A stretch of 64,000 nucleotides of DNA, from the sequence record OR836606.1. One strand, given 5' to 3'. Positions 5,229-26,616 of the stretch are shown piece by piece. The stretch comes from Staphylococcus phage LY01. The notes beneath the pieces were generated by a model that was given only the letters and a program-made list of their open reading frames with translations, was not told the origin of the DNA and searched no databases. The position numbers and the translations under genes are program-made. Within the stretch, counting starts at the first letter, position 1. Each line of letters starts with the position of its first letter.

Positions 5229-6119
5229 TTGGATATGGCAATTACAAGAAAGAAAATTACAAAAGAAAAAGAGGATTTAACTGTATTAGAATCGGCTAAG
5301 ATCAAATTATCAGAGGAACAAGGATATGAGGGAGATACAATTACATTTGATATCGAAACTATTCCAGAGAAATATGACAGAAAGAATTTAGTTTTAATCC
5401 CTGAAGATGATAATGTTATTAAGATTAATTATGATAAAAAAGAAATTTTCATCAATTCAGATGAACTTAAAGATGTTGAAATTAATCTTAAAGATATTCC
5501 AACAGAAAGTTCTTATGATAAAGTAACTGTAACAGCTTCAGGTATAAATCCAGAAAAAGCAAAAGAAATTAAGCAAAAAGAAACTAAGCAAGAAGAAGTT
5601 AAAGAAGAAGTTAAGAATCCAGTATTAAAAGAGAAAAAACAAAGTACAAAAGCTAAATCAAATCAGAAGGTTGGTAAAAAGAAAATGACTAATAAAAAGA
5701 AGAATGTTAAAAAATTCAGTGAGAAATCTTATACTAAAGAAGAACTTATTAACGACTTATTATTAAATCTAGAAGAGAATGAATATTCTAAAAAAGAATT
5801 AAGTGATATTATTAATAAAATTGATGAACTTAGAGAAAATGCATTAGTTAAAGGTAAAACAGTAACTATGAAAAATGTACATTTCTCTCGTAAATTAGTT
5901 AAAGGTCGTATTCATAACGCTAAAATGGAAACAATTAAACAAGCATCATTTGTACCACCTCATATTGCTATGGTAGCTAAAGTGGAAAATGAAGATAAAA
6001 AAGTAATTAAAGGTGAAGAAATTAATAAAGATAACTTTAAAACAGATGATGGTAAAGATATTAAAGTTTCAGATGTCAATGCCAAATATGAAGAAGAATA
6101 CAAAAAACGTTTTAGATAA
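5229..6119 (+). CDS. hypothetical K/E-rich protein (296 aa)
   Basis: ORF with GGAG-like RBS (aaggagagatttggATATG). Confidence 0.5.
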   Translation: MDMAITRKKITKEKEDLTVLESAKIKLSEEQGYEGDTITFDIETIPEKYDRKNLVLIPEDDNVIKINYDKKEIFINSDELKDVEINLKDIPTESSYDKVTVTASGINPEKAKEIKQKETKQEEVKEEVKNPVLKEKKQSTKAKSNQKVGKKKMTNKKKNVKKFSEKSYTKEELINDLLLNLEENEYSKKELSDIINKIDELRENALVKGKTVTMKNVHFSRKLVKGRIHNAKMETIKQASFVPPHIAMVAKVENEDKKVIKGEEINKDNFKTDDGKDIKVSDVNAKYEEEYKKRFR

Positions 6120-6133
6120 GACCAATTAAAAAT

Positions 6134-6802
6134 ATGGGGGAATTGTCAATGAAACATTTTTATAAGAAAAGAGAATCTATTGAATTAGATTTAAAAGCTA
6201 TGTATACAAATCATGTAGATGTAATTTCTCGTTACGATTTTGGTGATGAGGAGTTACATCAAATGGTAGATAGATTCATACCTCAAATAGTTGAAGAAAT
6301 TCATGAATTCAATTATGAAATAAATCAAATTACTAATAATCCTGAATGCAATCAATCTCGAAAGTTTGAATATATTAATAATGCATCAAAAGAATTATTA
6401 GATATTGTCCTTTACTTAATATCTATCAATTCAACATTATTAAGTAAGTATATGGACAATAAATTTCTTCAAAAAGATATTATCAATTATAATGAGACTC
6501 TCCTTTTAGCTAACGATAAAAGTATTAATGATTATAATAGACTTAATGGTATTAAAATGAAATTGAATGAATATTTAGTTGAATATATGGGATTGATTAG
6601 ACGTTCATTACCTAATAGAAAATATCATCAAGATAAAGAAGAAATTAGTCAAGAAGAACAAAATAAAATAGTGAATAATTCATTTTATATCACTCACAAA
6701 ATGATCGTATCTTTATTAGATACATTATTTACTAATTTAGTTTATACTAAAAATCTAGATGATGTATTGAATAAAATACAAGATGTAGTTAAAAATAAAT
6801 AA
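6134..6802 (+). CDS. hypothetical protein (222 aa)
   Basis: ORF immediately downstream of 5229-6119. Terminator follows. Confidence 0.5.
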   Translation: MGELSMKHFYKKRESIELDLKAMYTNHVDVISRYDFGDEELHQMVDRFIPQIVEEIHEFNYEINQITNNPECNQSRKFEYINNASKELLDIVLYLISINSTLLSKYMDNKFLQKDIINYNETLLLANDKSINDYNRLNGIKMKLNEYLVEYMGLIRRSLPNRKYHQDKEEISQEEQNKIVNNSFYITHKMIVSLLDTLFTNLVYTKNLDDVLNKIQDVVKNK

Positions 6803-6807: not shown

Positions 6808-6875
6808 ATTCATCCTAACACATTTAGTCCTTAACTGGATTATTTGTGTTAGGATGAATATTTTATTTTTTTTTT
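6808..6875 (+). terminator. rho-independent terminator
   Basis: TTCATCCTAACACA ... TGTGTTAGGATGAA stem followed by a long T-run. Confidence 0.6.
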
Positions 6876-6954
6876 ATCTTTTAATTTAATCTATATGATT
6901 CTGATAGAAACATATATGTATTAAGAAAATCATGTTAGGGGGGAATTATGAAAC

Positions 6955-9900
6955 TTGGCTAAAAATAATAAAAATAAAAAGAATATTAGACAATTAGAAA
7001 ATAACAATAAATCAACTGTTATTAAAAATTCTTCTAAAAATACCGGCCGTATTCTTTTTAATGCGTTTATAAAATCTAACCCGTCATTAGATGCTATAGT
7101 GGGAGATTCAGGTTTAAAATTATTTAACAATGATGAAAGAAGATTAAAAAATTTTTCTGAAGTTAAAGGTTCTACTAATGATCTAATAAAAACTTTAAAA
7201 AATAAATCTAATGAAAACGATCTTTTTTCAAGTAGTAATGAAAAATTATCTAATGAAAAACCTGAATATGAATCAGTAACAGAATATATTGATAATCCTG
7301 ATGGAACTAAATCTGAAATTGTTAGTCTGTCAGATAAAAAGAAATCTAAAATAACAAATTCACCTCTAATAGCGATGAATAATTTGGCTGAGATAAATCA
7401 AAGAGGATTTGTTGGAACGAATATTGCAATGAACAATTATTCTCTATCAATACAAGCAACTAATAGCCTTATATATTCAGCCTTATCAAATTTAAGTACA
7501 ATACAAAATGGTATATATCAAAATACTCTAATGGAAGAAAATACTAAAAGAGATAAACAATCTAAATTACAATCCATAATAAATGGAAATATTAGTTTAT
7601 TAAAATATTTAGATGAGAAAACTAATCCTGAAAATTTATTAATGGGTATGATGACCGGAGAACAACTTAAATCAATGTTAATGGGAGTAGCTAAAAACCC
7701 TATTGAATTTGCTGCAACTCAAGGAGCTAAAATTGCATTTAATAAACTTCTATATGGTGATATTGGCGGGTATGATCCTGAAGGTAGTAATAAAAACATA
7801 TTTAACAGATTGAATAAAAGATTTGATCCTCAAAATATAGGATCTATGCTTATTAATAGAAATCTTGTTGAAGATAATAAACTTACTAAAGGTTTAGAAA
7901 GATTAACCGGTAATGATAATAAGTATATATCTAATTTAGGAAATGCTCTTTCAGATAGACTAAATCAATTAAAAGAAGAAGTATTGGGTGACGGTAAGGG
8001 CAGTATTTCTCTAAAAAATAAACGTAAAAAAGATACTCCGGTTCAATTTGATATGGAATCTCATACGTCTATTAATAAAGTTATACCGGACTTCTTATCT
8101 AGAATTCAAGGTAATTTGATAGCTAAAAAAGAAGGTCGTTCAGGCGGATTAGCAGATAATGCTGAATTAGGTAGTATTTATAATTATCGAAAAGGTATTT
8201 GGGAAAATCGAAGATCTGCTAAGAAAAATGCATTAGATGAAATTAAATCAGAATCTTTATTCAATTTTAAAGATACTTATTTAGGTAAAGAATTATTATC
8301 TAAATTAGATAATGATGAAGAAAGAACTAAAGAAGTTTTAACTGAATTAACTAAAATAGACAAACCTATTAAAGAAATTTCTAAACTTAAAGAGATAATT
8401 AATCAAAAAAATATAAATGTTAGCACTGAATCATTATCGGAAGTGTTTGAAAAGAATTCAGCTAAATTCAATACTGATTTATTCAATATTAAGAAATCTA
8501 TTTCAAATACTCTTGATAAAAAAGATAATTCAAGAATAATGTCATTTACTGAAATAGAAGGTTTAAATAAATCTAATTCAACATATTCTAGATCTAACAA
8601 TGATGATGATATTAATCAGATTAAAGATTTTGGCAATATTAACTGGGAAAATAGTGATTTAGAAGAAATTAAAAATATTTTCTTAGAAATAGAAAGAAAA
8701 TTAAATAATGACTTCAGTAGCGGTAATATTAATAATAATAAAGAATTTATTAATAATAAAGTCGATACAATCAATAATATTATAGACAAAGGCAAAATTT
8801 TCTCTGTTTTAAGTGGGAATAATGAATCTCATGCTTCTGTAATGGATAAGTTAAATAGTCTTTCTAATGCAGTTAATAAAGCTAAAGAATATAAAGAAAA
8901 TCCTACAAGTGCTATTAAAGATATAGCCTCTTCCTTAACTAACAGTGTCAGTCTTCCTCAAGAAAACAACCAATTAATGCGAAATAATGAATATCAATAT
9001 CAAAATGTAAATCATCAATCTAGCATTATAGATAATAATCCAGTAATGGATTTAATGAATAATATTCCCGTCTTAAATAGTTTAACGATTAATAACAATG
9101 AAGCTAATAAAGATGCTTACATTAAAGAACCAAGTAAAACTATAGATGATTTAACCAAAGAAGAAAAAGAAAAGAAAGCTAAAAGCACGATAATTGATTT
9201 AGTTAACACTGCTTTTGGTAATGACCCAACTATTAAAAAAGATATGGAAGATTCCCAAGATACTGGAGCTTTAGAAAGAATGAAACAAGGTCTTTCAACT
9301 GCTGATGCTGGAAAACTTGGAGAAAATGTTATGTCTACAATGACTGGGTCTAGTAAGAAAGAAATTGCTGAATCTATTAGAGGTAATATAAACTTTGGAA
9401 AAGGCGGAGAAGCTGAGAAATCTATTGGCACTAAAAAGATGATGAACGGAATGCTTGATTTTAGTAAAATGGGACCAGTTTTATTTGCTGGAACTTCTGC
9501 AGCTGTATTAGGTTCATTAATGAAAGGTAGAAATAGTAAGAAAGATTTAGAAGTCAGTGAAAAAGGATTTTTATCATCTGCTGGAGGATTTTTAGGTAAC
9601 GCCGCTATGCTAGGTGCTGGAGGATTCTTGGCTGCTAAATTTGGTCCTAAACTATTATCTAAATTATTACCGGGTGGAGTAGGTAAATTCTTCACTAGTA
9701 TGCCTGGTATGTTAGGTAAAATAGGCGGCGGAATTAAAAATATAGCTGGGAAATTTGGATTAGGAAAATTATTTAGAGGTATTAAAGGTGCTCCTAAAAA
9801 AATAGGTAACGTATTTAAAGGTATTGGAAAATTTGCTAAAGATAAACTACCTACTGTTAAGTCTTTAGGTAAAATGGTTATAGGTAAAGGTGCAGGATTG

Positions 9901-12900
9901 GTTAAAAAGGGATTAAGTACCGGTAAAACTATAGGTAAAGTAGCTAAAAGTGGTATATCTAAGATATTTAATAAAAAGAATGCTTCAGCTGCTACTAAAG
10001 GATTAAGCAAATTTGCTTCTAAAGGTTTTAACAGAGCTAAATCTATCGGTAAAGGTTTATTTGGTGGTTCTAAGAAACTTGGAGGGAAAGCTTTTGGTGC
10101 TATAGGTAAAGCTAAAAATAAATTATTTGGTAAAGGTGCAGCGAAAGCTGGAGGAAAATTTGCATTAAAGGCAGGATTGAAAACAGCATTACCATTCATA
10201 CCATTTGTTGGACCAGTGATTGGTGCAGCGATGTGGGCTCCTGATATCATTAAGACTATTAAACACCCTATAGAATCATTAAAACATCCAATTAAAACAT
10301 TGGGCAGCTTTTTCGGAATTGGAGAACATCCAGGTGATAAAATAGAAGATGAAGCTAAAAGTAAAGAAGAAAAACATACTGAAGATGAAACAGGTTTAGG
10401 ACGACTAATATTAAGCACGACTAAGCTAATGTTTAGAGCTTCCCCTATGTTCCCACTAGCTAAAGTTGGAGGGAATATGTTTAAAACAGTTACTGATAAT
10501 AAAATGCAATCCGGTCCAAAAGCTGAAGAAAATATTCAAAAAGATATATTCATGAGCACTCCTTTAGGTAGTTTATATCAAATTGCTAAAGGCGGAATCG
10601 ATTTCTCTAAATATGGTAAAGGTGAAATTGGAGATTGGTTCAGTCGTTTCTTAGTTAAAATGGAAGAAATGGTTGTTGCAATGTCTAAAATGAGAAATTC
10701 TAGTGGTTCTGGAAGTTCAAGTGGTAGTAGCTCAGGTGGAGATCAGCTTAAAGGAGATGAAATAGAAATAGATAAAAATGCTCCTTCTATTACTTCACAA
10801 GGTATTTTAAATAAAATACCTGATGACGCTGCCGGCGCTTGGTTGAAGAAACATGAGTTCTGGCAACCATTTGGTAATTATCAAGGATTAGCATTTAATG
10901 GAAGCTCAAAACACTGGGGTATAGATATTGGTATGCCTACAGGAACTGATGTATTGGCAATTGTACCGGGTACTGTTTCTAATGTCTTCGTTGATCATGG
11001 CGGAGGTAATATAATAGAGATTAAAAATGGCGGAATATACACTTGGTATATGCATAATAGTAAAATAATTGCCAAAAAAGGTGACAAAGTCCAAGTAGGT
11101 CAAAAAATCTCAGTTTCAGGTAATACAGGAGCTCAAACAACCGCACCTCACCTTCACTTCCAAGTCATGAAAGGTAGACCTTCAAATGAAACTGCTATAG
11201 ATCCAGCACCATATGTTTTCGCAAAAGTTAAAGGAAAAGGCGGAGACAAAGATGATGATAAAAAATCTGATAGTAGTGCTAAAAAAAGTAAGAAGAAAAA
11301 AGGTGATGATGGCGGTGGACACTCTGTTATCGGTGATTTAAATTCACATTCCATTCAGAGGGATATTAAAAGAAAAAGAGCTCAAGATATTAAAAATAGA
11401 AAAATCCAAGATCGCGTTATTAGACGAGAAGAACAAAGCTTAGCTAAGGCTGAAAGAGAAGACGCATTAAATGTTAAAAAAGTAGCCAAAAAAGTTAATA
11501 ATATATTCAAGAAATTAAAAGATTTAAAAGGAACTAAAGGTACACTTAAATCTTCAAATCAATTTAATAAAGTATTAATTGTTGGTGATGATACAATTAA
11601 TGATGCATCCGTAGATCTTAAAAAGAAAATTAAAGGTGCTAAAGTCGAATCTTCTAATGGTAAAGCATATAGTTTTGGACCATCATCAGGTAGAAAAATA
11701 CTTCAAGAAAATGTTTCTGAATATAATAAGAAAGGTATAGCTATTGTTATACAGCTAGGTATGAATGGTGGATTATCGACAGGAGAAGTTACAGAAATAC
11801 AACATATGTATGATAAAGCACATGTATACTTTGTGACTAATGCAATTAGTAAAAAATTAGAGAATGATACAGAACTATCTAATGCAATAGATGATCTGAA
11901 TGATTCATTAAAGATGTCTGCTGAAAATATAATCGAATGGGATAAAAAAGCATCTGAATCATTGTTTAATGAAGACGGAATCACTCTTAATAATAGAGGT
12001 AGAATGATCTTTGTTGATCTTATTAAATTGTATATAAACCCATATATTGGCGGAGGCGGTAGCTCTGATGAAGAAAAAATAGATAAGGATATAGATAAAG
12101 AAGAATCTAAAGCTGAGAAGAAAAAATCTAAAGAAAAAGATGAAGAGGAAAATAATGAAGAAACTTCAGATGATGAAGATAAAGGCTCTTCTGCCGAAGG
12201 ATCTTCTGAGTATAGTTTTAAAAATGGTACTTGGTACGGATCTATAACTGGAAGAGATGATAGAAGAATGGATGAAGAAGAACAAGAGGAATTAAATGAT
12301 CGTTTAATGAAACGATACGCTAAAATTTATGGCATTGATTACGAAGAAGCTAAAAGAATTGATCAAGAACAACAAGAAAAGAAAAAATCTGAAGCAGGAA
12401 ACAAAAAGTCTGAATCAAGTGCATCAAGTTCTAATAGCGATAGTTCTTCTGAAAATTCATCAAATAATTCTAGTTCCTCAGCATCAACTTCTAAACCAAA
12501 TAGCAATGTAAATATCGGAAACCCTCCTATATTCCAATTACCTACATTAGCTAACAGCGGATTTTCCAATATTAATAGAGGTAATAATACTTTTAATAAT
12601 CAAGGTAGTAAAAATACTCAAACAATTAATAATAATTATCAAACCGGACAAAGTGGTATTATTAATAATGAAAAAGTAAATAAAGAATTTATAAAAGGTA
12701 AGAATAGAGTAACTAACCATTATAATAAAATTGTAAATAATCATAAAAATTCTAAAATTGAAAATGGCAATTCTGGTTATACTTATGATTATGAAAAATT
12801 ATGGTATTCAGATGATTTAGTAAGAATGTTAGCTAATATTGATAGAAACACATTAGAGTCTACTAAAGAATTAGATCGTTTATTAGAAGAATTGAAATAG
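6955..12900 (+). CDS. giant tail-associated protein (1981 aa) with M23 peptidase domain; TTG start
   Basis: M23/LytM motifs HWGIDIG...D...HLHFQV around nt 10900-11170. Long G/K-rich low-complexity core. Modules paralogous to the next ORF: NPIESLKHPIKTLGS and the SEYSFKNGTWYGSITGRDD...IDQEQQEK block. GGGGGG RBS before TTG. Confidence 0.7.
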   Translation: MAKNNKNKKNIRQLENNNKSTVIKNSSKNTGRILFNAFIKSNPSLDAIVGDSGLKLFNNDERRLKNFSEVKGSTNDLIKTLKNKSNENDLFSSSNEKLSNEKPEYESVTEYIDNPDGTKSEIVSLSDKKKSKITNSPLIAMNNLAEINQRGFVGTNIAMNNYSLSIQATNSLIYSALSNLSTIQNGIYQNTLMEENTKRDKQSKLQSIINGNISLLKYLDEKTNPENLLMGMMTGEQLKSMLMGVAKNPIEFAATQGAKIAFNKLLYGDIGGYDPEGSNKNIFNRLNKRFDPQNIGSMLINRNLVEDNKLTKGLERLTGNDNKYISNLGNALSDRLNQLKEEVLGDGKGSISLKNKRKKDTPVQFDMESHTSINKVIPDFLSRIQGNLIAKKEGRSGGLADNAELGSIYNYRKGIWENRRSAKKNALDEIKSESLFNFKDTYLGKELLSKLDNDEERTKEVLTELTKIDKPIKEISKLKEIINQKNINVSTESLSEVFEKNSAKFNTDLFNIKKSISNTLDKKDNSRIMSFTEIEGLNKSNSTYSRSNNDDDINQIKDFGNINWENSDLEEIKNIFLEIERKLNNDFSSGNINNNKEFINNKVDTINNIIDKGKIFSVLSGNNESHASVMDKLNSLSNAVNKAKEYKENPTSAIKDIASSLTNSVSLPQENNQLMRNNEYQYQNVNHQSSIIDNNPVMDLMNNIPVLNSLTINNNEANKDAYIKEPSKTIDDLTKEEKEKKAKSTIIDLVNTAFGNDPTIKKDMEDSQDTGALERMKQGLSTADAGKLGENVMSTMTGSSKKEIAESIRGNINFGKGGEAEKSIGTKKMMNGMLDFSKMGPVLFAGTSAAVLGSLMKGRNSKKDLEVSEKGFLSSAGGFLGNAAMLGAGGFLAAKFGPKLLSKLLPGGVGKFFTSMPGMLGKIGGGIKNIAGKFGLGKLFRGIKGAPKKIGNVFKGIGKFAKDKLPTVKSLGKMVIGKGAGLVKKGLSTGKTIGKVAKSGISKIFNKKNASAATKGLSKFASKGFNRAKSIGKGLFGGSKKLGGKAFGAIGKAKNKLFGKGAAKAGGKFALKAGLKTALPFIPFVGPVIGAAMWAPDIIKTIKHPIESLKHPIKTLGSFFGIGEHPGDKIEDEAKSKEEKHTEDETGLGRLILSTTKLMFRASPMFPLAKVGGNMFKTVTDNKMQSGPKAEENIQKDIFMSTPLGSLYQIAKGGIDFSKYGKGEIGDWFSRFLVKMEEMVVAMSKMRNSSGSGSSSGSSSGGDQLKGDEIEIDKNAPSITSQGILNKIPDDAAGAWLKKHEFWQPFGNYQGLAFNGSSKHWGIDIGMPTGTDVLAIVPGTVSNVFVDHGGGNIIEIKNGGIYTWYMHNSKIIAKKGDKVQVGQKISVSGNTGAQTTAPHLHFQVMKGRPSNETAIDPAPYVFAKVKGKGGDKDDDKKSDSSAKKSKKKKGDDGGGHSVIGDLNSHSIQRDIKRKRAQDIKNRKIQDRVIRREEQSLAKAEREDALNVKKVAKKVNNIFKKLKDLKGTKGTLKSSNQFNKVLIVGDDTINDASVDLKKKIKGAKVESSNGKAYSFGPSSGRKILQENVSEYNKKGIAIVIQLGMNGGLSTGEVTEIQHMYDKAHVYFVTNAISKKLENDTELSNAIDDLNDSLKMSAENIIEWDKKASESLFNEDGITLNNRGRMIFVDLIKLYINPYIGGGGSSDEEKIDKDIDKEESKAEKKKSKEKDEEENNEETSDDEDKGSSAEGSSEYSFKNGTWYGSITGRDDRRMDEEEQEELNDRLMKRYAKIYGIDYEEAKRIDQEQQEKKKSEAGNKKSESSASSSNSDSSSENSSNNSSSSASTSKPNSNVNIGNPPIFQLPTLANSGFSNINRGNNTFNNQGSKNTQTINNNYQTGQSGIINNEKVNKEFIKGKNRVTNHYNKIVNNHKNSKIENGNSGYTYDYEKLWYSDDLVRMLANIDRNTLESTKELDRLLEELK

Positions 12901-12923
12901 ATAACAGGAGGTGGAACTAATAA

Positions 12924-15900
12924 TTGGCTAGAAATAAAAAATTTAACACTAGTAAGATAGAGAAGGAGTTTAGAAATAACTCCTCCTCTAAATCTTCTAG
13001 AAAATATATAGATACTGAATTTAATAAAAATTTAAATAATATAAATTCTAACGATATGAAACGTATGATGGATCAAAACAATCCATTAAAAGCAGTTAAA
13101 GAATTAAAGAATAAAAAGAAAAAGCAACTACAAAAGATAAGTGAATCAACTAGAGATTTATCTAAAGAAGCTTTAGAATCTACTAAAAATACCTTTAAAA
13201 CTGGAGAAACAATTCAAGATAAAGGATCATTAAAAAACTTCAATAGTATGGGTATGGATTTCAGTGGAGATTTTGAAGATTTTAGTTTTGATGATAGTTT
13301 TTCAGATATAGATTCCGACATAGATAATTCTTTAGATGATGGAGATTTCAAATTTGATGACTTTGATAAGGAAGATGATAATAAATCTAAAATAGTGTCT
13401 TCCACAACAATTATCAATAATGACGGTTCTTCTGCTAAATCTACAGCACTATTAACTTCTTCTGTTTCTAATCTTTCTCAAATAAACACTACTGGATTTA
13501 CTTCTATGATTAATAACCTTAATTTAATGAGGGAAGCTAATGATAATATTAGAGAAAGTATGTTCCAGAACTTAAACGGATTAATTCAAACTAGTAATGC
13601 TATTAGACAAAATACTAAAATTAAAAATATATCCGAAATAAAGAATAGTAATTCATTAGAAGACTTATTTTTATCAAATATAACTTTATCAAATATATTA
13701 GAAGGATCTCAAGAAGAAGGATTTAAAGATAAAGCTAAAGACTTCATCAAAAAACAAGGAACAGAATTACTTAAAGAAGTTATTGGTTCTAAAAAACAAG
13801 GAATTAAAAGTTCAGGTTTAGTTGATTTAGCTAAAGGTAAAGCTTTTGATTTCCTTAATAATGAAGATACTTTTATAGAGAAAGCGGTTGGCAAATTTGC
13901 TAATAAAAAACTTAGTCCTTTTAGAGATAATGATAATGGTACTAAACAAAGGAAAAGAGATAAAAGAAGAGATGATTTACTTGAAGACGTTAAATTAGGT
14001 AAAAGCAAGTTAATTGATAAAATATTTGATAATGTAACTGGCGGTATATCAACTGCTAATAAAAAAGATAGAAATCAAAAAGTTGCTTTTGATGTGGAAA
14101 CTCATAATACAATTAATACAGTTATCCCTGGCTATTTATCTAAAATAGTTGGTTTAACTTCAGAAGATGGTCAAGAAATCCACTATGATTATGATTCAGG
14201 TTCTTTTAAAACTTCCAAATCTATTAAAAATGATATAGAAAAAAGAGTTAATAAAACTATCAAAGAATCTAGTTTTACTAAAGAATTTGAAAATATGGCT
14301 TCTGAAATGGGTATTGATCTGTTTAATAATGAAAGTAATAAAAATAAAGCCACATCTAAAATTAAAGAAATTATTTCTAGAAATATTAACAAAAGTGATG
14401 AACTTGATCAAATTAAATCTAATGACCCAAATGACCCATTTAATATTCTTCTAGATAAAATATTTAATGATAAAGAAGCTAAAACTAGTTTAACTAAAAC
14501 TAGAATGCAATTAAATAAAGAATCTAAAGATATTAAGAGAAAATTATCGGGTAGTTCTATAAATGCTCTTAATGACAAGAGTAAAAGAAAAGGTACTTCT
14601 AAAAATATTACATCCAAATTAAGTAATGGAAATAAAAGTGGTATTCTTAGTACTAACAAAGATACTTTATACGATAATATTAACTTTAATATCGTTAATA
14701 GAGATATAAGTGAGATCAAAAAGATTGTTTCTAGAATAAATAATAAAATACCTGAGAAAAGATATAATAATTCTAACGATAGTAAGTCAAGTGACTTTAT
14801 TAATAATACAAATCAATCTAATGATAATATTTCCAGAGAAATAGATCCTAGAGAGCAAACTTTAAACCAAAATACTTCTTCTAGATCAAATCAGAATAGA
14901 GAATATGATAATACTAAAAATGGAGATAATGGATCTACTATTATTCCTAATGAACAAATTTTAGAAGATGGACAAACAAAATCGTCTGAAAGTTCAGATA
15001 ATAAAGATTTTATAGATAGAATAGAAGAAGCTCAAGATCTTATCGATAGCAATAAATATGTTAAAGAGAAATTTGACAAATATAAAAATAAAGGTAAAAA
15101 CTTTGCTAAAGAAAAAATAGGTAAATTGTCCAATACTAAATTAGGTAGTAAAATAACTAGTATGGGCGGTGCTTTAACTGGTAAATTTGCTGCTGGCGGT
15201 GCTTTAATGGCAGGTGCAGGTAGTAGACTTAAAGGAAAACTTAAGGCTAGAGCTACTAGAATGGCTGCTGGAAAAGGTACTAAAAAAGCTATAGGTAAAG
15301 GATTACTTAAAGCAGGTTCTAAAGTAGGTGCTCGTGTTGGGTTAAATGCTATTCCCGTAGTTGGACAAATTGCATCATTAGCATTAGCCGGTCCAGATAT
15401 TATTAGAACAATAGCCAATCCAATAGAATCGTTAAAACATCCAATTAAAACATTAGGTAGTATTATTGGTTTCAATGACCACCCTTCTAAAACTAAAAAA
15501 GAACAAGAAAAGTTAGATTCAACTCAACCTGGCGGAGAAAATTTTGCAATTGATCCTTTAGTTGATACTAAAATGAATGGATCTATAGATAAATCTTCAA
15601 TTATTGGAGATTTTATTAAAGATAATCCATTATTAGCTTCCACTCCTTTATTAGGATTAGCAGGAATGGGTTTATATAAATCAATTGTAAAACCGGCATT
15701 CGGTTTAGGTATGAATATGGTTCAAAAAACTACCGGTATGGCTAAGAGTTTTGGAGATCAAACTGATATGGCTATGGAAGAGAAAACAAGTGGCTTTGGC
15801 GGTTTGATTAAAAAAGTTGTCGGCGGTGCTTCTATGTTAATGATGGCACCTTTGGCATTGGCTGGTAAAGGTTTAAGTAATTTAACTGGTATGACTTCAA

Positions 15901-18626
15901 CGCTTCTTCAAGGAGGAACTGGTCTAATTAAATCTGGTTGGAATTGGTTAAACGAAAAATTCTCTAGTTATGAAGAAGAAATGGGAAATATGAGTAAAGA
16001 AATGACTGAAGCTAGTAAAGAAGAATTAAGTTCATATCAAGAAGGAATTGAAAGTGAAGCATCTGATAGAGCTAAAAAAGAGATAGCGGAAATGCAAGGT
16101 ATGTCAGATAAAGCTAATAAAGATGCTGAAAAACAAGTAAAAGAATCCGCAGAAAAAACCAGAGACGATATTAAAAAAGATGTAGATGAAACTATGAAGA
16201 ATTCACCATTATCAATAATGGGTAGAATTGGTCATCAAATGAATAAATTGATGCCTAAAAATCTTATGAGTAAACTTAAGAAAACTCCTAAAAAATTAGC
16301 TGAAACTATGATGCGTATGTCTCCTTTTTATACTTTATTAAGTAAGAAGAAAAAGAAAAAATCTAAATTAGATATAAATGAGCCAGGCGGAGAAGTAGTT
16401 AATACTATTGGAGACTGGTTTGATAAGCTCGGCGGTATGATGAATGATATCATGGCTGGTTTTATGGCCGGCTCTGGATCAAGTTCAGCGGAAGCCTCTG
16501 AAATCTCAGATGGCGATGCAGCTTCAGTAGGCGGAGAAGGCGCTGAGAAAATATGGAATTTCCTAACTGGTAAGGGACTATCAGAAGAACAAGTTGCAGG
16601 TATATTAGGTAACTTTGAACATGAATCTGGAAATAGACCAGATAGAGTTCAAGGAGATGTAGCATTTGACGAAGCAAAAGCAAATAGTTCTATATCAGGT
16701 TATGGTATAGGTATTGCTCAATGGGATAATGTCCGTAGACAAGGTTTAATGAAGTATGCTAAAAAACAAGGTAAAAAATGGAGTGACTTGGATTTACAAT
16801 TAGATTATTTATGGTATGAATTACAAGGTCCCGAAAGTGCTGCGTTTTCACATCTTAAATCTACTAAAACAGTAGAACAAGCTGCTGCTTCATGGGTGAG
16901 TAAATATGAAAGAGCGGGTGTACCTGCATTAGGAAACCGTGTATCCTCAGGAAATGCTTTTCTTAAAAAATTTAGTGGTTCTTCTAAAAAATCAACTAAG
17001 AAAAAAGGCGGCGGTGGAGGAGGCTCTAATACAATAGATACTGCTTACTTAAAACAATTTTCTAATATGAGTTCTTCCACTAAAAATATTAATGTAAGAA
17101 AAGTTGCTTATAAAAATAAAGGACTAATTAAAGGAAATCCTCCTATTCAAAAAGGCGGCGGTGGAGGAGGCAGTAGTGGCAACGTTCAAGCTAAAATTAA
17201 GAAAGCTGTAGAATGGGCCAAGAAACAAGTTGGAGCTTCTTACTCACAACCTAACCGTGATGGTGCTAATTCATTTGACTGTTCAAGTTTAGTCTATCGT
17301 TCTTATAGAAAAGCAGGATTAACTGATGTTCCACAAGGTGCTACTACACATACTTTTTGGGATGGAGGTACTCCTTTCGAAAAAATAAACCCTAAAAAAG
17401 ATGGATTAAAAGTTGGAGATATTATTTTATGCGCTAATGTGGAACACGTAACAATCTATATCGGTAATGGAAAACAAGTAGAGTCAAATGGAGTTGAAGG
17501 CGTTGTTATCAACAGTGCGAATAAATATAAAAATCAATTTGGTATAGATGGATACATGCGTTATAAAGGCGGCGGACCAAGTGATGGAGGATCTGATAGT
17601 GAAGAGTCTGGAGGAGATTCTCCAGGCGCTTCAGAATACAGCTTTAAAAATGGCACTTGGTACGGATCAATTACTGGTCGTGATGATAACCGTATGGATG
17701 AAGAAGAACAAGAAGCTTTAAATGACCGTTTAATGAAACGTTATGCTCAGATATATGGAATTGATTATGAAGAAGCTAAGAAAATTGACCAAGAACAACA
17801 AGAAAAACTTAAATCTGAAGCTGGCAAGAAAAAATCTGAGTCAGGATCTTCATCTGGTTCGGAAGGATCAACGGGTTCATCTAGTTCAAGTGGATCTGAT
17901 GGAAGAGATGGGTCAAATGGACAAGATGGATCATCTTCATCAACTTCAGGTCAATCTCAACAACAAGGTTCAGGAAATTCTTCTGGAGGAAGTACTGTAA
18001 TTAACAATGGAGGAAATACTAATTCTACTATAGTTAATAATAATTATACTTCACCAGGTGCCGCTACTAGTAATTCAACTACCCAACAAATAATTCAAGG
18101 GAATAATAATACTGTAAGAAATATTTATAATATCACTAATAATTATAATAATTCCACGGTATCTTACAAAAATGGTCCTATGAAAGTTGATAATCAAAAA
18201 CGCATGGATTTAGATGAAATTACTAAGCATACAAGCAATATTGATAAGAATACGGCTAAAATGTTAGAACAGCTTAAGAAAATGTCATTTAAAGGTAATA
18301 ACTCTATTATTAATAATAAAGGTAATAATATCTTTAATAACACTACTATCAATGATAAAGGTGACTTAGTTGACCCTAAAGGTAATGTAATTATCAAAGA
18401 AATTAATAAAGAAATTGATAAAATCATTAAGGACAATTTACAAAATAACCCAGATATTATTAATAATGGTAATATTAATCCTAATGATTCATATAATCCT
18501 GGTACTGGTGGAAATAACGGTCCTTCACAAGGAGATCCAGATCTTCAAGAAGCTATTAATAGATCTTATGGAGATCAATTTAATATTGACGTGAGATCTG
18601 CTATACCAGTATTTTCAGGTAAATAA
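12924..18626 (+). CDS. giant tail-associated lysin (1900 aa): tail-tip lysozyme-like + CHAP/NlpC-P60 domains; TTG start
   Basis: Lysozyme-like block (GNFEHESGNRPDRVQGD...GIAQWD..R, nt ~16560-16930). CHAP-like Cys/His block (DCSSLVYRSY ... EHVTIYIGNG, nt ~17270-17480). AGGAGG RBS before TTG. Shares modules with the preceding ORF. Confidence 0.7.
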   Translation: MARNKKFNTSKIEKEFRNNSSSKSSRKYIDTEFNKNLNNINSNDMKRMMDQNNPLKAVKELKNKKKKQLQKISESTRDLSKEALESTKNTFKTGETIQDKGSLKNFNSMGMDFSGDFEDFSFDDSFSDIDSDIDNSLDDGDFKFDDFDKEDDNKSKIVSSTTIINNDGSSAKSTALLTSSVSNLSQINTTGFTSMINNLNLMREANDNIRESMFQNLNGLIQTSNAIRQNTKIKNISEIKNSNSLEDLFLSNITLSNILEGSQEEGFKDKAKDFIKKQGTELLKEVIGSKKQGIKSSGLVDLAKGKAFDFLNNEDTFIEKAVGKFANKKLSPFRDNDNGTKQRKRDKRRDDLLEDVKLGKSKLIDKIFDNVTGGISTANKKDRNQKVAFDVETHNTINTVIPGYLSKIVGLTSEDGQEIHYDYDSGSFKTSKSIKNDIEKRVNKTIKESSFTKEFENMASEMGIDLFNNESNKNKATSKIKEIISRNINKSDELDQIKSNDPNDPFNILLDKIFNDKEAKTSLTKTRMQLNKESKDIKRKLSGSSINALNDKSKRKGTSKNITSKLSNGNKSGILSTNKDTLYDNINFNIVNRDISEIKKIVSRINNKIPEKRYNNSNDSKSSDFINNTNQSNDNISREIDPREQTLNQNTSSRSNQNREYDNTKNGDNGSTIIPNEQILEDGQTKSSESSDNKDFIDRIEEAQDLIDSNKYVKEKFDKYKNKGKNFAKEKIGKLSNTKLGSKITSMGGALTGKFAAGGALMAGAGSRLKGKLKARATRMAAGKGTKKAIGKGLLKAGSKVGARVGLNAIPVVGQIASLALAGPDIIRTIANPIESLKHPIKTLGSIIGFNDHPSKTKKEQEKLDSTQPGGENFAIDPLVDTKMNGSIDKSSIIGDFIKDNPLLASTPLLGLAGMGLYKSIVKPAFGLGMNMVQKTTGMAKSFGDQTDMAMEEKTSGFGGLIKKVVGGASMLMMAPLALAGKGLSNLTGMTSTLLQGGTGLIKSGWNWLNEKFSSYEEEMGNMSKEMTEASKEELSSYQEGIESEASDRAKKEIAEMQGMSDKANKDAEKQVKESAEKTRDDIKKDVDETMKNSPLSIMGRIGHQMNKLMPKNLMSKLKKTPKKLAETMMRMSPFYTLLSKKKKKKSKLDINEPGGEVVNTIGDWFDKLGGMMNDIMAGFMAGSGSSSAEASEISDGDAASVGGEGAEKIWNFLTGKGLSEEQVAGILGNFEHESGNRPDRVQGDVAFDEAKANSSISGYGIGIAQWDNVRRQGLMKYAKKQGKKWSDLDLQLDYLWYELQGPESAAFSHLKSTKTVEQAAASWVSKYERAGVPALGNRVSSGNAFLKKFSGSSKKSTKKKGGGGGGSNTIDTAYLKQFSNMSSSTKNINVRKVAYKNKGLIKGNPPIQKGGGGGGSSGNVQAKIKKAVEWAKKQVGASYSQPNRDGANSFDCSSLVYRSYRKAGLTDVPQGATTHTFWDGGTPFEKINPKKDGLKVGDIILCANVEHVTIYIGNGKQVESNGVEGVVINSANKYKNQFGIDGYMRYKGGGPSDGGSDSEESGGDSPGASEYSFKNGTWYGSITGRDDNRMDEEEQEALNDRLMKRYAQIYGIDYEEAKKIDQEQQEKLKSEAGKKKSESGSSSGSEGSTGSSSSSGSDGRDGSNGQDGSSSSTSGQSQQQGSGNSSGGSTVINNGGNTNSTIVNNNYTSPGAATSNSTTQQIIQGNNNTVRNIYNITNNYNNSTVSYKNGPMKVDNQKRMDLDEITKHTSNIDKNTAKMLEQLKKMSFKGNNSIINNKGNNIFNNTTINDKGDLVDPKGNVIIKEINKEIDKIIKDNLQNNPDIINNGNINPNDSYNPGTGGNNGPSQGDPDLQEAINRSYGDQFNIDVRSAIPVFSGK

Positions 18627-18677
18627 AGTTAATGATTTAAATAAATAGAAGAACAACTTTTTTATATAGTAAAAATT

Positions 18678-18715
18678 ATGCGGATATGACAATTTATTAT
18701 ATGTCATATCCGCAT
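18678..18715 (+). promoter_or_regulatory. perfect hairpin (ATGCGGATATGACA / TGTCATATCCGCAT) overlapping candidate start codons of the next gene
   Basis: Inverted repeat seen directly. Both ATGs at 18686 and 18701 lie inside the stem. Confidence 0.3.
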
Positions 18716-20245
18716 ATATTATTTCAGAAATTAAAAAAGGATGTGAAATCTAAATTGCCTAATGAAAAAGATATAAAAGAACAAATTGAAAAAGCTGAGA
18801 AAAAAGCCAAAGAAAAAGAAATGGAAAAGCTTAATATTAGAGATGAAGATATAGCATTAATACCTCAGCCTGATGAAGGTAAAGGAGATTACGATTTCCA
18901 TGAATATGATCCTAGTCAAAATGATTTAGGTGTATTTAAAGACGCTACAGGTAATACTCGTGACATTTCTGAGTATGGAGCTTCTGATAAAACTAAATTG
19001 AGAAATGTTAAAGGGGAGTTAGATGTATTTGGAATGCCTATGTACTATTCTAGCTTAGATGATCCTAATAGAAGAATATATAAAAGAACATTTGAGTTAG
19101 ATTTGCCTTTAGTATTTATAATGCCAGGTATGCCTAAATTAAATGGTAAACTATTTGGTAAACCGGGTGAAGGAAAATTATGGAGTTTTGGAGAAGGTTT
19201 AGACAGATTAGCAAATACTACTGCTGGTTTAGTCGGTATAGGTAATACTAAAGATGGGCGTATGGTTAGTTTTGAACCTAAAATGAGTGAGTACTATAAA
19301 TACGTGCAAACTATGGGAAGTCAATTACATGCTTCTATGGGTTTAAAAGGTTCATTTGATTTGGGTGGCTCTCTAGATGATAAAAACTATGGATTAGCTT
19401 ATTATGCTGATAAAGCTACTAGTGTATCTGAATCTGGAATGCATGAATATAATCAATCTGATATAGCTTCTCAAATTAATAATAAAAACCAAGAAATTCG
19501 TGAAGAAAAAGAAATGGCTCGTATTGGAGGAGCTTCTATTTTAGGTAAAATTACAAGATCTATTAAAGATAGTATCAATGATATGGTTGCAAGTATGCCA
19601 GTATTGGGTGGTATAGTTGGTAACTTTATGGAAAACCTAGATGGTGCGTCTATGTATTATCCTGATATTTGGATGAATTCAACTTTTGACCGTACTTATA
19701 ATTTAGAATTTAAATTCTATAGTGCGTATGGAGATCCTCAATCTATTTTTGAAAATGTATACTTGCCATTTATGTCATTATTAGTATTAGCTTTACCTTT
19801 ACAAGATTCTATTTTCTCATATAAACAACCATTCATTGTTAGAGCAAATTGTCCTGGTAGATTTGAATGCCATACAGGTATTATAACATCAATGAATATA
19901 GTTCGTGGAGAAGAAGGTACATGGACAGCAGATGGTTTCCCTAGAGAAATAACAGTTTCACTAAATGTAAGAGATATGTACCCTAACTTAATGGCATCAA
20001 AATCATTCCAACGTATGAAATTTAATACAGGTTTAATTTCTTATATTGATTGTTTAGCAGGTATTAGAAGAGATCAACTATCAATTATAGATAAAGCTCA
20101 AATTAATATGCAAAATCAATATTCAAGAAGTATGCAAGTGTTAAAAGGAAGAGTATTTAAACAGCAAATAGATGATACAATTTATGGTTATAAATCTCAA
20201 ACAAACCCTCATCCTAACAGTGCTATTGGAAGTACATTATCATAA
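18686..20245 (+). CDS. hypothetical structural protein (519 aa), possibly baseplate/tail
   Basis: Long ORF directly after the two giant tail proteins. The start may be at the internal ATG 18701. Confidence 0.5.
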   Translation: MTIYYMSYPHILFQKLKKDVKSKLPNEKDIKEQIEKAEKKAKEKEMEKLNIRDEDIALIPQPDEGKGDYDFHEYDPSQNDLGVFKDATGNTRDISEYGASDKTKLRNVKGELDVFGMPMYYSSLDDPNRRIYKRTFELDLPLVFIMPGMPKLNGKLFGKPGEGKLWSFGEGLDRLANTTAGLVGIGNTKDGRMVSFEPKMSEYYKYVQTMGSQLHASMGLKGSFDLGGSLDDKNYGLAYYADKATSVSESGMHEYNQSDIASQINNKNQEIREEKEMARIGGASILGKITRSIKDSINDMVASMPVLGGIVGNFMENLDGASMYYPDIWMNSTFDRTYNLEFKFYSAYGDPQSIFENVYLPFMSLLVLALPLQDSIFSYKQPFIVRANCPGRFECHTGIITSMNIVRGEEGTWTADGFPREITVSLNVRDMYPNLMASKSFQRMKFNTGLISYIDCLAGIRRDQLSIIDKAQINMQNQYSRSMQVLKGRVFKQQIDDTIYGYKSQTNPHPNSAIGSTLS

Positions 20246-22503: not shown

Positions 22504-23310
22504 TTATTTAAGATCTCCGTTACCAGAGCCGGTGATTCCGCCTTTATTATAGTCGAAATCAGATAAGTTGTCACCAGCAGTTTTAGGTGCAGCTGGATCG
22601 AACATACCTTGTTCAGTGAAGCTGTAAATTTCATTAAGTTTAGATTTAGCAAAATCATTTACACGTGAAGAGATTTCCATATTACCTGCAAAGTCTTGCT
22701 CAATTTGTGCTTCTTCATGAGTTTCCATAGTGTAGTTATGGTGATCAAGAGAAATACGAGTAGGCATTACTGCAGTGTAATAAGCAGCGAATTCAATATT
22801 ATTTTTAGATGTATTATTAGCATCCGGACGAGTTTGGATATATAATAATTCACCTGTATGGTTTTTAGCAGCATATTCTAAATTATGAATTTTAGGATAA
22901 GTTGCAATACCAGTACGAGGATCACGGATACCAGATACCCAATATTGATACATATTTTTAATTGGACTACCAGAAAATTCTTGGTGAGTCATTTGGAAAC
23001 CAGTGTTTCCTTTTGTAATACTAGCGGCTGTACGATAGTTATTACCATTAAACGTATGCATATATTCATTTGTAGTCATTTCAATATTTTCTAAACCTTG
23101 GAATGATTTAAAGTTCTTTTGTGTCATAGCTTTAAATCCAGGGAATTGTTTTTCAACCCAAGAAGGAATTTTAGTCCATACTATGAACGAATAACCAGTT
23201 ACGAATGGATCAAACTCAAGAGTTTGAAGGTTCATATGTCCATTATAGAACCATTTGTTCTTAGCGATGTTATTGTCAAACACACGCTGATTTTTACTTG
23301 GTAAAATCAT
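22504..23310 (-). CDS. putative tail tube protein (268 aa)
   Basis: Size and position immediately downstream of the sheath-like gene on the same strand. No direct motif evidence. Confidence 0.4.
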   Translation of the reverse strand: MILPSKNQRVFDNNIAKNKWFYNGHMNLQTLEFDPFVTGYSFIVWTKIPSWVEKQFPGFKAMTQKNFKSFQGLENIEMTTNEYMHTFNGNNYRTAASITKGNTGFQMTHQEFSGSPIKNMYQYWVSGIRDPRTGIATYPKIHNLEYAAKNHTGELLYIQTRPDANNTSKNNIEFAAYYTAVMPTRISLDHHNYTMETHEEAQIEQDFAGNMEISSRVNDFAKSKLNEIYSFTEQGMFDPAAPKTAGDNLSDFDYNKGGITGSGNGDLK

Positions 23311-26400: not shown

Positions 26401-26616
26401 GTTATAAGCAGATTGACCGTATTTCGTATAGTTTGGTTCACCATATTTAAAAATAAATTCTTCTTCAGTACCTACAAAATCAATAACTCCATCTTTACCT
26501 TTTTCAAAAGTGTCTGCAGCAAATAATGTTACTGGACCTTCAGCTGTTTGATAACTATTTTGATAAGAGTTGATTTGTGTTTGTACAGAAGGATGGAGAT
26601 ACATAAAGTCTGCCAT
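23464..26616 (-). CDS. putative tail sheath protein (1050 aa, unusually large)
   Basis: N-terminal region (...YNIVNWLRSGGQAYVLRILP) and C-terminal beta-rich domain resemble the conserved ends of contractile sheath proteins (T4 gp18-like pattern ...NFLQYGNDLRVVR). Followed by a tube-sized gene. Confidence 0.55.
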   Translation of the reverse strand: MADFMYLHPSVQTQINSYQNSYQTAEGPVTLFAADTFEKGKDGVIDFVGTEEEFIFKYGEPNYTKYGQSAYNIVNWLRSGGQAYVLRILPQNATYSHAILNVQSRVQKDGKKVLTESNELVKIDDVKIRPTIAFVKKNNRNIEELVNEITLDRGNEQTVDGYNNNFLLLAYPNGRGESYNDLGIRLTLNTSYDTSGRTERVYNLEVLEFDDFGNVNVIDGPFLVTFDPDSISDTGESMFIEEVVNRYSKYINIKFNLENFQNLAKEINPNVHPASIDVISGKSKISIDGTPETFYSEETKQTEDVHIALHRYNNKGLPVTISGKHVLNKPDFNDPVENALISLDNGMREKTFVTDSDRLSYMRDQYKTLRSDNFTEFKSLLNKIIVPSNGLFDDDTGNLPKIIKDNLVSEKLNQEDVSADINDAEAVEEELAGKFKPSEINFGGKPAGAAERLVQDYNTYFEDSNEENLSAVLSGTEEIGSLLLNEFLDNGNKLNAAYELVYKSNSGISSNPKYQADVKELRDVLAQKDQIRIFGIQHKSNILDITNDIAELRIGMKSVTNLEGMAKVLNDTETELRYVIDNLMPAVREGLPEEAINFINTTPDGDDEDSERDLVSPESMLNSLADKQMLVDDITLGLMEDNAVNREEVFVTCNEIANQLVDLINRAVSVASVYKVARAVRIAVNTIYYDISIFRKNIDEMIQTRSNYTERDITLNAHQNIELAVANLNKANSKYFNTNLIDISSPVKFLFGSDGDFSYAEDISYKDRKNAVNRELIKAYKGLVDEEITNTKAYPFDVVLDARYSNEVKFAISELAKNVRKDFVFLADTVTDRYPVSPEDAIRWRKEEFAVSSEYTAIYSQDLTYYDEYTGRDIRFTPTYRLASMIPYQAVNSGLHFPIAGPRRGLVEGHKALSWAPNEPYKEKLYTSKINYIEKDIDKTKFGAQMTSIKSDGPLSNLNNIFTLNQIKRDAETLVSDYQFELNDDETRSIMSTELNAYLTRYVSNRSCETIQAEVSADEYDKSQRIVRIKISVKFNNVIERIFIDINVEK

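Follow-up and report, generated by a model that had tools for sequence, protein, structure and literature searches.

Tandem giant proteins of Staphylococcus phage LY01 as a probable, anciently duplicated tape-measure-like pair of a jumbo myovirus

Tape-measure proteins (TMPs) and virion-associated lysins decide the breach of the thick Gram-positive cell wall, and they are mined as anti-staphylococcal enzymes. In AR9-type and phiKZ-type jumbo phages, one giant gene lies directly upstream of a conserved virion protein, and phiKZ gp181 has been described as a virion-associated peptidoglycan hydrolase (PMC5380687). Here, we present a computational analysis of the corresponding locus in a 64,000-nucleotide (nt) stretch of Staphylococcus phage LY01 (record OR836606.1, hereafter the window), where two tandem giant genes, ORF1 and ORF2, stand directly upstream of an AR9 gp204-like virion protein, as the AR9 gp203-type giant does. 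We consider it probable that they encode an anciently duplicated, tape-measure-like pair of the tail lumen of an AR9-related jumbo myovirus of the uracil-DNA type, with ORF1 as the ruler and ORF2 as the lysin carrier. The single giants, all upstream of the virion protein, and the three LY01 genes are as follows (lengths in amino acids, aa).

AR9: gp203, 1925 aa
BpSp: gp263, 1797 aa
LPJP1: three frameshifted pieces, ~1530 aa
phiR1-37: g083, 2553 aa
PhiPA3: gene 213 (counterpart of phiKZ gp181), 2319 aa
6955..12900, + strand: ORF1, a tape-measure-like giant with an A-type backbone, 1981 aa, TTG start, orthologue of MarsHill gp087
12924..18626, + strand: ORF2, a tape-measure-like lysin carrier with a B-type backbone, 1900 aa, TTG start, orthologue of MarsHill gp086 and of an SA1 gene, one of a couple named 'tail tape measure protein'
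18686..20245, + strand: conserved virion protein, counterpart of AR9 gp204 and homologue of phiKZ gp182 (phrog_20401 'virion structural protein', E 2e-88)

The downstream virion protein, for which tblastn matches were obtained in 191 phage records, anchors the synteny of the giant gene(s) in all relatives. The giants of AR9, BpSp, LPJP1 and phiR1-37 also have in common with ORF1 and ORF2 an N-terminal motif (..FD.E.H..IN.VIP.YLSK..) at about aa 350-400. In BLASTP and tblastn searches, both LY01 proteins matched AR9 gp203, BpSp gp263 and LPJP1, and ORF2 matched phiR1-37 g083 (E-values between 1e-5 and 1e-15, the databases being small). In their N blocks, AR9 and BpSp were closer to ORF2 than to ORF1. 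A 1436-aa gene neighbouring the LPJP1 giant was considered as a second paralog and rejected, as it showed no similarity. Scans of IMG/VR with the downstream virion protein returned AR9 and phiR1-37 themselves only.

Much closer relatives were found among Staphylococcus phages. In megablast, the region shows 88% nucleotide identity with Staphylococcus phage MarsHill; it also matches S6, PALS_2, DC4, Madawaska, SA1, Machias, PB50 and AH12, all of them jumbo myoviruses of Staphylococcus that measure 260-275 kb and are relatives of Bacillus phage AR9/PBS1. All nine sequenced Staphylococcus jumbo phages possess the gene pair as direct orthologues, with gene order, TTG starts, shared blocks and domain sets in common, and with the same flanks, i.e. 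a RecD-like helicase upstream and the conserved virion protein downstream. Total lengths range from 1973 to 2020 aa for the ORF1 type and from 1900 to 1960 aa for the ORF2 type, and LY01 ORF1 is about 77-79% identical overall to its closest orthologues. MarsHill is annotated with a 'tape measure protein' (gp087) and a 'tail lysin' (gp086), DC4 with a tape measure (bearing M23) and a tail lysozyme, and SA1 with two genes both named 'tail tape measure protein'; the authors of the MarsHill genome remarked on 'two potential tape measure proteins' (Korn et al., bioRxiv 10.1101/2020.12.14.422802). Thus, the public record already contains the pair, without a discussion of its paralogy. An earlier reading made from the letters of LY01 alone (hereafter the sequence-only reading) had called this architecture unusual, which was overstated, given its presence in all nine Staphylococcus jumbo phages, the remark of Korn et al. 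and the tandem giants of four uncultured relatives described below. The basic paired architecture is ordinary for this phage group and already in public annotations; it is unusual only against the AR9-type and phiKZ-type phages, with one such gene each. What is newly added here is the antiquity and spread of the duplication, the exchange of enzymatic cassettes between phages and between backbones, the mosaic nature of ORF1, and an OatA-like SGNH domain.

The coordinates and lengths first given for both ORFs were exact on recheck. Both begin with TTG-GCT and both follow strong ribosome-binding sites (RBS), as had been claimed, with a G-rich site at 6937-6943 for ORF1 and AGGAGGTGG at 12906-12914 for ORF2. 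An ATG at 6948, near the start of ORF1, lies in another frame and runs into a stop after four codons. The TTG start of ORF1 is credible because residues 1-140 are 86-90% conserved among orthologues, and TTG or GTG starts recur in orthologues and metagenomic relatives. The short gap of 23 nt between the two ORFs, together with the frameshifts that split the LPJP1 counterpart, could speak for an artefact, with a frameshift cutting a single gene in two, or with one of the copies decaying as a pseudogene. We give this explanation practically no credence, since the two ORFs lie in different frames and each comes with a strong RBS of its own, a basic, conserved N-terminus and the full set of blocks from N to C; moreover, six relatives inspected in full and four metagenomic contigs carry both genes intact, and nonsynonymous divergence (pN) between the copies is far below synonymous divergence (pS). 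A single mis-split gene, which the sequence-only reading had itself named as a way in which it could fail, was rejected on these grounds, the two genes being separate in every relative examined.

ORF1 and ORF2 are paralogs, as first proposed. When the two are compared by BLASTP, three colinear blocks emerge: an N block (ORF1 aa 140-609 against ORF2 aa 180-636, 25% identity, E 6e-10), a middle block (aa 1049-1149 against aa 781-870, 47% identity, E 2e-20) and a C block (aa 1741-1981 against aa 1560-1785, 45% identity, E 3e-38). The elements of this common layout are listed below.

8047..8112, + strand: core of the ORF1 N block, FDMESHTSINKVIPDFLSRIQG, a family signature common to ORF2, AR9 gp203, BpSp gp263, LPJP1, phiR1-37 g083 and metagenomic giants
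14088..14153, + strand: core of the ORF2 N block, FDVETHNTINTVIPGYLSKIVG (BLASTP and alignment)
9352..10254, + strand: G/K-rich amphipathic tract of ORF1, aa ~800-1100 (composition and hydropathy), ending in a hydrophobic segment at aa 1077-1095 (10183-10239)
10099..10401, + strand: middle shared block of ORF1, including the invariant PIESLKHPIKTLGS at 10267-10308; 94% conserved among orthologues
15264..15533, + strand: middle shared block of ORF2, with a hydrophobic segment at aa 805-823 (15336-15392) and PIESLKHPIKTLGS at 15420-15461
12205..12381, + strand: ORF1 copy of a 59-aa C module, SEYSFKNGTWYGS...IDQEQQEK (BLASTP)
17631..17807, + strand: ORF2 copy of the 59-aa C module (BLASTP)
12652..12897, + strand: helical C-terminal end of ORF1, 85-94% conserved among orthologues and 39% identical to the C-terminal end of the first giant of contig L013 (see below)

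The N-terminal motif first noticed, FD.E.H..IN.VIP..LS.I.G, was found in both proteins, and so were the G/K-rich tracts: ORF1 aa 901-1100 comprises 41 G and 41 K with only 2 D/E, and the centre of ORF2 is likewise G/K-rich and hydrophobic. Each protein has one strongly hydrophobic segment, located directly before the invariant peptide. The identity of this peptide between the two copies is real, although its extent had to be corrected to the 14 aa of PIESLKHPIKTLGS, preceded by H in ORF1 and by N in ORF2; at the nucleotide level, 37 of its 42 bases match and all five differences are synonymous. The near-identity claimed for the C-terminal module also stands (55 of 59 residues), and its nucleotide identity of 83.6%, with pS at 0.70 (saturated) and pN at 0.05, bears out the synonymous divergence under purifying selection that had been deduced from it. 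Recent gene conversion was rejected as an explanation for the near-identical module in LY01, as such saturation is at odds with it. In Machias, an identical stretch, LKAKAGKEATESGSSS, directly follows the 59-aa module in both ORF A and ORF B, in a region that differs between the paralogs in other phages; this may reflect local gene conversion in the Machias lineage.

AlphaFold2 modelled the C module as a beta-hairpin and two helices, with predicted local distance difference test (pLDDT) scores of 72-78 in the helices from a shallow alignment, and the C-terminal 237 aa of ORF1 as helical at low confidence (mean pLDDT 48.5), too poor for a fold search. Querying a word-indexed protein database with the C module returned one fragment, such a database being uninformative for queries of this kind. 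No third paralog was found in the window by tblastn with the shared blocks.

The family proved rare. An exhaustive HMMER search with ORF2 aa 1-700 retrieved only 24 cluster representatives among 1.84 billion proteins, nearly all of them giants of 1200-2600 aa with colinearly matched N-termini. Four metagenomic contigs carry tandem giants followed by a homologue of the virion protein (identity at the end of each line).

L013: giant 1, 1393 aa, Phage_lysozyme2; giant 2, 1721 aa, M23, TTG-GCT start; then the virion protein homologue, 55% identical
L014: giant 1, 1565 aa, no Pfam domain; giant 2, 1817 aa, Phage_lysozyme2 and Amidase_5; giant 3, 1704 aa, Glucosaminidase and Amidase_5; then the virion protein homologue, 43%
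L015: giant 1, 1467 aa, no Pfam domain; giant 2, 1753 aa, Phage_lysozyme2 and M23; then the virion protein homologue, 41%
L016: giant 1, 1480 aa, no Pfam domain; giant 2, 1650 aa, PlyCA_N; then CHAP fused to the virion protein homologue, 46%

In a neighbour-joining tree built on the N-terminal region with BpSp as root (100 bootstraps), all second-position genes and LPJP1 grouped with the Staphylococcus B copies in 86/100 bootstraps, while the Staphylococcus A and B copies were exclusive sisters in only 4/100. A duplication specific to the Staphylococcus clade, with ORF1 derived from ORF2, was rejected on this figure and on the A/B pairs of the metagenomic contigs. Because of these pairs and of the tree support, the duplication predates the Staphylococcus clade, and the old age attributed to it in the sequence-only reading is borne out by both the saturated pS and the tree. 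Two peculiarities of these contigs deserve mention in their own right: L014 holds three tandem giant paralogs (5283-20659), and in L016, a 244-kb scaffold of an uncultured phage, a CHAP domain is fused to the N-terminus of the virion protein homologue (15038-16987).

The lytic domains were of two sets. An M23 peptidase had been assigned to one copy, and a lysozyme-like plus a CHAP domain to the other; the domains detected here are the following.

10909..11205, + strand: Peptidase_M23 (PF01551) of ORF1, with both metal-binding motifs intact (HWGID, aa 1320-1324; HLHF, aa 1399-1402)
11572..12027, + strand: OatA-C-like SGNH domain of ORF1, catalytically degenerate (phmmer against PDB 6WN9/6VJP)
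16542..16973, + strand: Phage_lysozyme2 (PF18013), ORF2 aa 1207-1350 (Pfam E 1e-36)
17199..17525, + strand: NlpC/P60 (Amidase_5-like) cysteine peptidase, ORF2 aa 1426-1534 (Pfam NLPC_P60 E 2e-9, Amidase_5 E 1e-6)

Pfam reported Peptidase_M23 at ORF1 aa 1319-1417 (E 7e-23, 81 bits against a cutoff of 28.7) and Phage_lysozyme2 in ORF2, scoring 126.6 bits (cutoff 28.2) and spanning positions 3-140 of the 140-position profile, in agreement with the first assignments. By contrast, CHAP (PF05257) was not reported in ORF2, where NlpC/P60 was found instead (37.6 bits against a cutoff of 23, with Amidase_5 above its cutoff and Peptidase_C92 weak), its cysteine (FDCSS, aa 1451-1455) and histidine (EHVTIY, aa 1507-1512) both being present. 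CHAP and NlpC/P60/Amidase_5 belong to the same papain-like superfamily but to different families. Failing domain searches had been the other outcome feared for the sequence-only reading; Pfam instead supports its M23 and lysozyme assignments, and CHAP is corrected to NlpC/P60. Outside the clade, the closest matches to M23 were tape-measure proteins of Staphylococcus siphoviruses (45-54% identity for the best matches, within a range of 39-54%), and those to the lysozyme-like domain were tape-measure/tail-lysin proteins of Twort/K-like Staphylococcus myoviruses (41-50% identity). Because the closest relatives of both domains thus lie in the TMPs of other Staphylococcus phages, their similarity suggests that the lytic domains were captured from the local phage pool.

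The SGNH domain of ORF1 had been overlooked by the sequence-only reading, and Pfam reported nothing in this stretch. It was detected by phmmer, which aligned ORF1 aa ~1540-1691 with the C-terminal domains of OatA over ~150 aa (E 1e-8 for 6WN9, 1e-7 for 6VJP), 6VJP being the SGNH domain at the C-terminus of Staphylococcus aureus OatA (PMC9487903). In ORF1, the serine of the block I GDS is replaced by Asp (VGDD, aa 1543-1546) and the histidine of block V by Thr (DGITL, aa 1674-1678). The domain of LY01 is likely a pseudo-enzyme, because both catalytic residues are replaced. These residues are lost in SA1 and Machias too, and both are kept in MarsHill, PALS_2 and S6. The domain finds no mention in published accounts of the Staphylococcus jumbo phage clade. 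An SGNH query against the word-indexed protein database gave no matches, the database being uninformative for it as well, and the AlphaFold2 model of the domain (pLDDT 37.7) was too poor for a fold search.

In each protein, the lytic domains sit between the conserved middle block and the C-terminal module, and the backbone blocks are better conserved than the enzymes. Among ORF1 orthologues, backbone blocks are 85-94% conserved, and aa 1251-1750, which contain M23 and SGNH, only 30-63%. A sliding-window comparison delimits the exchangeable part of ORF1.

10555..12354, + strand: exchangeable enzymatic cassette of ORF1, aa ~1201-1800 (sliding-window identity), Machias-like inside a MarsHill/S6-like backbone

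LY01 ORF1 is mostly about 90% or more identical to MarsHill/S6 at aa 1-1200 and aa 1901-1981, and 33-68% identical to them at aa 1201-1800, where Machias is the best match (54-86%); the right-hand boundary of the cassette is the conserved C module. ORF2 of LY01 is not mosaic. Exchange was also visible at a larger evolutionary scale in contig L013. Its first giant combines a backbone of the ORF1 type (25% identity over 1088 aa, E 1.5e-44) and an ORF1-like C-terminal end with a lysozyme domain 51% identical to that of ORF2; the backbone of its second giant is of the ORF2 type (27% over 1088 aa, E 8e-69), yet this protein carries M23 and a C-module-like stretch. Judged from these alignments, enzyme cassettes have moved both between phages and between the two paralogous backbones.

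Several lines of evidence support the tape-measure or ejection function first suggested for the pair, namely the annotation of relatives, the synteny with AR9 gp203 and the phiKZ gp181 counterpart, and lytic domains that match TMP-embedded ones. A tail location of both proteins is inferred from their surroundings: less than 5 kb separates the pair from the genes for the tail tube (22504..23310) and the sheath (23464..26616), the tail tube, tail sheath and ribonucleotide reductase genes following on the other strand. For orthologues, a high helical content and transmembrane segments have been reported (Korn et al., bioRxiv 10.1101/2020.12.14.422802). The same surroundings bear on whether one or both proteins are instead head-internal ejection proteins, comparable to T7 gp16 or to the inner-body proteins of phiKZ. 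Both proteins are indeed large and basic, with G/K-rich stretches of membrane-active appearance and lytic domains, and jumbo phages of the AR9 group inject many proteins, including a virion RNA polymerase. However, the genes stand among tail genes rather than head genes, their lytic domains match tape-measure-embedded ones, and relatives are uniformly annotated with a tape measure or tail lysin, which makes a place inside the head very improbable.

Other observations weigh against a tape-measure-like pair and temper our confidence. Virion mass spectrometry of DC4, the only such dataset in the clade and a shallow one (26 peptides), listed neither protein. The Pfam and NCBIfam tape-measure models matched neither protein, and those of PHROG do so across the lytic domains alone. 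No sequence similarity to the pair, the N block included, was detected in the PhiPA3 counterpart of phiKZ gp181, and monophyly of the A-type copies is weak in the tree (13/100 bootstraps). At 0.15 nm per residue, the full lengths of 1981 and 1900 aa predict tails of 297 and 285 nm, longer than the measured tails of the relatives MarsHill and S6, at about 233-237 nm (Korn et al., bioRxiv 10.1101/2020.12.14.422802). The ruler arithmetic fits only once the cassette is subtracted, ORF1 then amounting to about 1481 aa, or 222 nm; by the same arithmetic alone, enzyme-free A-type relatives of 1467-1565 aa would correspond to 220-235 nm. Finally, the shared blocks occupy different registers in ORF1 and ORF2, with offsets of 181-272 residues (middle block, aa 1105 against 833; C module, aa 1751 against 1570), an arrangement that speaks against a simple mixed coiled coil with its chains in register.

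These lengths nevertheless help to distribute the roles within the pair. The A-type backbone is enzyme-free in three of four distant relatives, and ORF1 is the better candidate for the ruler and membrane conduit, because A-type lengths give 220-235 nm, near the tails of MarsHill and S6. This raises the question of whether ORF1 alone fills the lumen, ORF2 being a 'needle' lysin of the baseplate or tail tip, outside the lumen, as proposed for phiKZ gp181. Such a division would agree with the annotation of a tape measure plus a tail lysin or lysozyme in MarsHill and DC4, with the restriction of enzymes to the second gene in three distant relatives, and with a review that lists phiKZ gp181 as a 'needle-like cell-puncturing device' (PMC5380687). 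But ORF2 has the same layout as ORF1 (N block, G/K-rich and hydrophobic centre, C module), and SA1 annotates both genes as tape measures. Moreover, the single LPJP1 gene groups with the B type and the N blocks of AR9 and BpSp are nearer to ORF2, so that the one presumed tape measure in each of those phages resembles ORF2 rather than ORF1. We therefore regard a needle outside the lumen as unlikely.

A further possibility is a heteromeric tape measure, in which the two paralogs co-assemble as one mixed oligomer in the lumen, held together or docked through the N block, the block around PIESLKHPIKTLGS and the 59-aa C module, and with both genes obligatory. The shared blocks are extremely conserved in both copies despite saturated synonymous sites; the pair is kept across very divergent lineages whichever backbone bears which enzyme; total lengths are similar (1973-2020 and 1900-1960 aa); and the adjacent genes, 23 nt apart, suggest coupled expression. 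A mixed oligomer is nonetheless hard to reconcile with the offset of 181-272 residues between the shared blocks, with the detection of the middle block in the first gene only in L014-L016, and with AR9, BpSp and LPJP1, which manage with one gene. On balance, we hold it as a tentative option. The extreme conservation of the three blocks in both copies does suggest either shared partners, such as a hub, chaperone or terminator, or contacts between ORF1 and ORF2.

Under the tape-measure-like pair that we favour, with ORF1 as the ruler and ORF2 as the lysin carrier, both proteins would be made late and in low copy number, a low-copy structural role that fits the conserved TTG/GTG starts, and would be loaded into the tail-tube lumen via their shared blocks. 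ORF1 would serve as length ruler and, through its G/K-rich, hydrophobic centre, as membrane-inserting conduit, and ORF2 as the main carrier of lysins (lysozyme-like and NlpC/P60). Sheath contraction would then expel both proteins, M23 cutting the staphylococcal cross-bridges, the lysozyme-like domain the glycan strands, and NlpC/P60 the stem peptides. The degenerate SGNH domain of LY01 would at most bind wall material, while that of the MarsHill/S6 subclade, with Ser and His kept, may act on peptidoglycan O-acetyl groups. A bolder version, to which we would give clearly less than an even chance, is an obligate two-component tape measure, heteromeric or stacked in the lumen. In it, the N block, PIESLKHPIKTLGS and the C module would serve both proteins as docking points, and the slot between middle block and C module would take host-specific wall-degrading cassettes, exchanged between phages and between backbones, including an active, O-acetyl-targeting SGNH in the MarsHill/S6 subclade.

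The surroundings of the pair provide candidate signals for its expression.

6808..6859, + strand: intrinsic terminator (strong hairpin and U-run) closing the upstream genes 5229..6802 (folding free energy, dG, -31.8 kcal/mol; z -10.7)
6909..6920, + strand: candidate late promoter of the ORF1-ORF2 unit, AACA-N6-TA, AACATATATGTA, fitting the AR9 late-promoter consensus

The hairpin, whose long loop caused a simple terminator scan to miss it, was recovered by folding: none of 200 shuffles folded as well, it is conserved in six phages with compensatory changes, and the MarsHill record annotates a terminator at the equivalent position. The late-promoter consensus of AR9 is AACA-(6N)-TA/G (PMC5312081), and the AACA-N6-TA at 6909..6920 is kept in all six aligned phages, amid diverging flanks and spacer. 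As an enriched promoter motif in the window, AACA-N6-TR was rejected (87 found against 116 expected). With a motif so short and not enriched by count, the promoter evidence is suggestive only, and the conservation of this single instance stands. Late, coupled expression of ORF1 and ORF2 is plausible. Between ORF2 and the virion protein gene (18627-18685), folding revealed no convincing terminator (dG -5.1 kcal/mol, z -0.5), unlike MarsHill, where one is annotated after the ORF2 orthologue; transcription may run on from ORF2 into the two virion-protein genes that follow. Neither Pfam nor PHROG gave a match for the upstream genes 5229..6119 and 6134..6802, and Rfam and tRNA scans of the window gave no matches.

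Some further features of the window were recorded along the way. Inside ORF1, an antisense ORF of 433 aa (9117-10418, - strand) is a Pro/Leu/Ser-rich, stop-free shadow of the G/K-rich tract and almost certainly not a gene. A third giant ORF (56703-64000, + strand) runs off the window end after at least 2432 aa and bears a carbohydrate-binding domain (CBM_4_9). The records of Machias and PB50 name it a putative tail fibre, and those of DC4 and PALS_2 'smc2' or 'viral capsid protein'. It was rejected as a third paralog, being an unrelated putative tail fibre; its last ~2.6 kb find a good match in SA1 only, which suggests a variable receptor-binding end. The tail sheath (23464-26616, - strand) is unusually long, with 1050 aa, of which only about aa 516-1049 match sheath families. 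The ribonucleotide reductase alpha gene (28976-31339, - strand) is split into ORFs of 249 and 485 aa in the same phase by a stop-rich insert of ~156 nt (30434-30589) inside the conserved NQxG / RxGAGAxYL active-site motif. Its DC4 orthologue is a single 733-aa gene, and the LY01 insert, without Rfam match, may be a small intron or another intervening sequence.

Beyond LY01, two giant paralogs with exchangeable lytic cassettes offer a concrete handle for engineering the host range of Staphylococcus jumbo phages, and the pair is a natural system for studying how two tape-measure-like proteins share one tail. Peptidoglycan O-acetylation is a known lysozyme-resistance trait, O-acetyl groups protecting staphylococcal peptidoglycan from lysozyme. 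An OatA-like SGNH domain that is intact in some relatives and degenerate in LY01 suggests a putative link between phage entry and this modification.

Compared with known systems, the SGNH domain of ORF1 resembles that of S. aureus OatA (6VJP, 6WN9) in its block I glycine-aspartate, block III GxNG and block V DG, and differs in carrying Asp and Thr where OatA has Ser and His; in OatA the domain is fused to an AT3 acyltransferase membrane domain, whereas in ORF1 it lies inside a phage structural protein (PMC9487903). Among its own clade, LY01 ORF1 stands out by a Machias-like M23 and SGNH cassette in a MarsHill/S6-like backbone, with the Ser and His of MarsHill, PALS_2 and S6 lost. The TMPs of Staphylococcus siphoviruses (phi12, 3A, 47, phiIPLA35 gp50) and of Twort/K-like myoviruses likewise embed lytic domains, the muramidase domain of the phiIPLA35 tape measure being experimentally active according to a reference listed in PMC8570332. 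These TMPs are nevertheless much shorter, number one gene per phage, and have backbones unrelated to ORF1 and ORF2, because the lytic domains alone match.

The counterpart of phiKZ gp181, seen through PhiPA3 gene 213, is a giant of ~2300 aa directly upstream of the phiKZ gp182 homologue, as in LY01, but it is a single gene in a phage of a Gram-negative host. AR9 gp203, BpSp gp263, the LPJP1 pieces and phiR1-37 g083 come closest, with the same locus, lengths of ~1530-2553 aa, the N block and a lytic domain towards the C-terminus. They differ in their enzymes, T6SS_VgrG3-like_C in AR9 and BpSp and T6SS_VgrG3-like_C with NlpC/P60 in LPJP1, with neither M23 nor Phage_lysozyme2, and the 59-aa C module is absent from all four, save for a weak trace in LPJP1. 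Above all, the AR9-type locus holds one copy of the giant gene, where LY01 and all Staphylococcus jumbo phages hold two in tandem.

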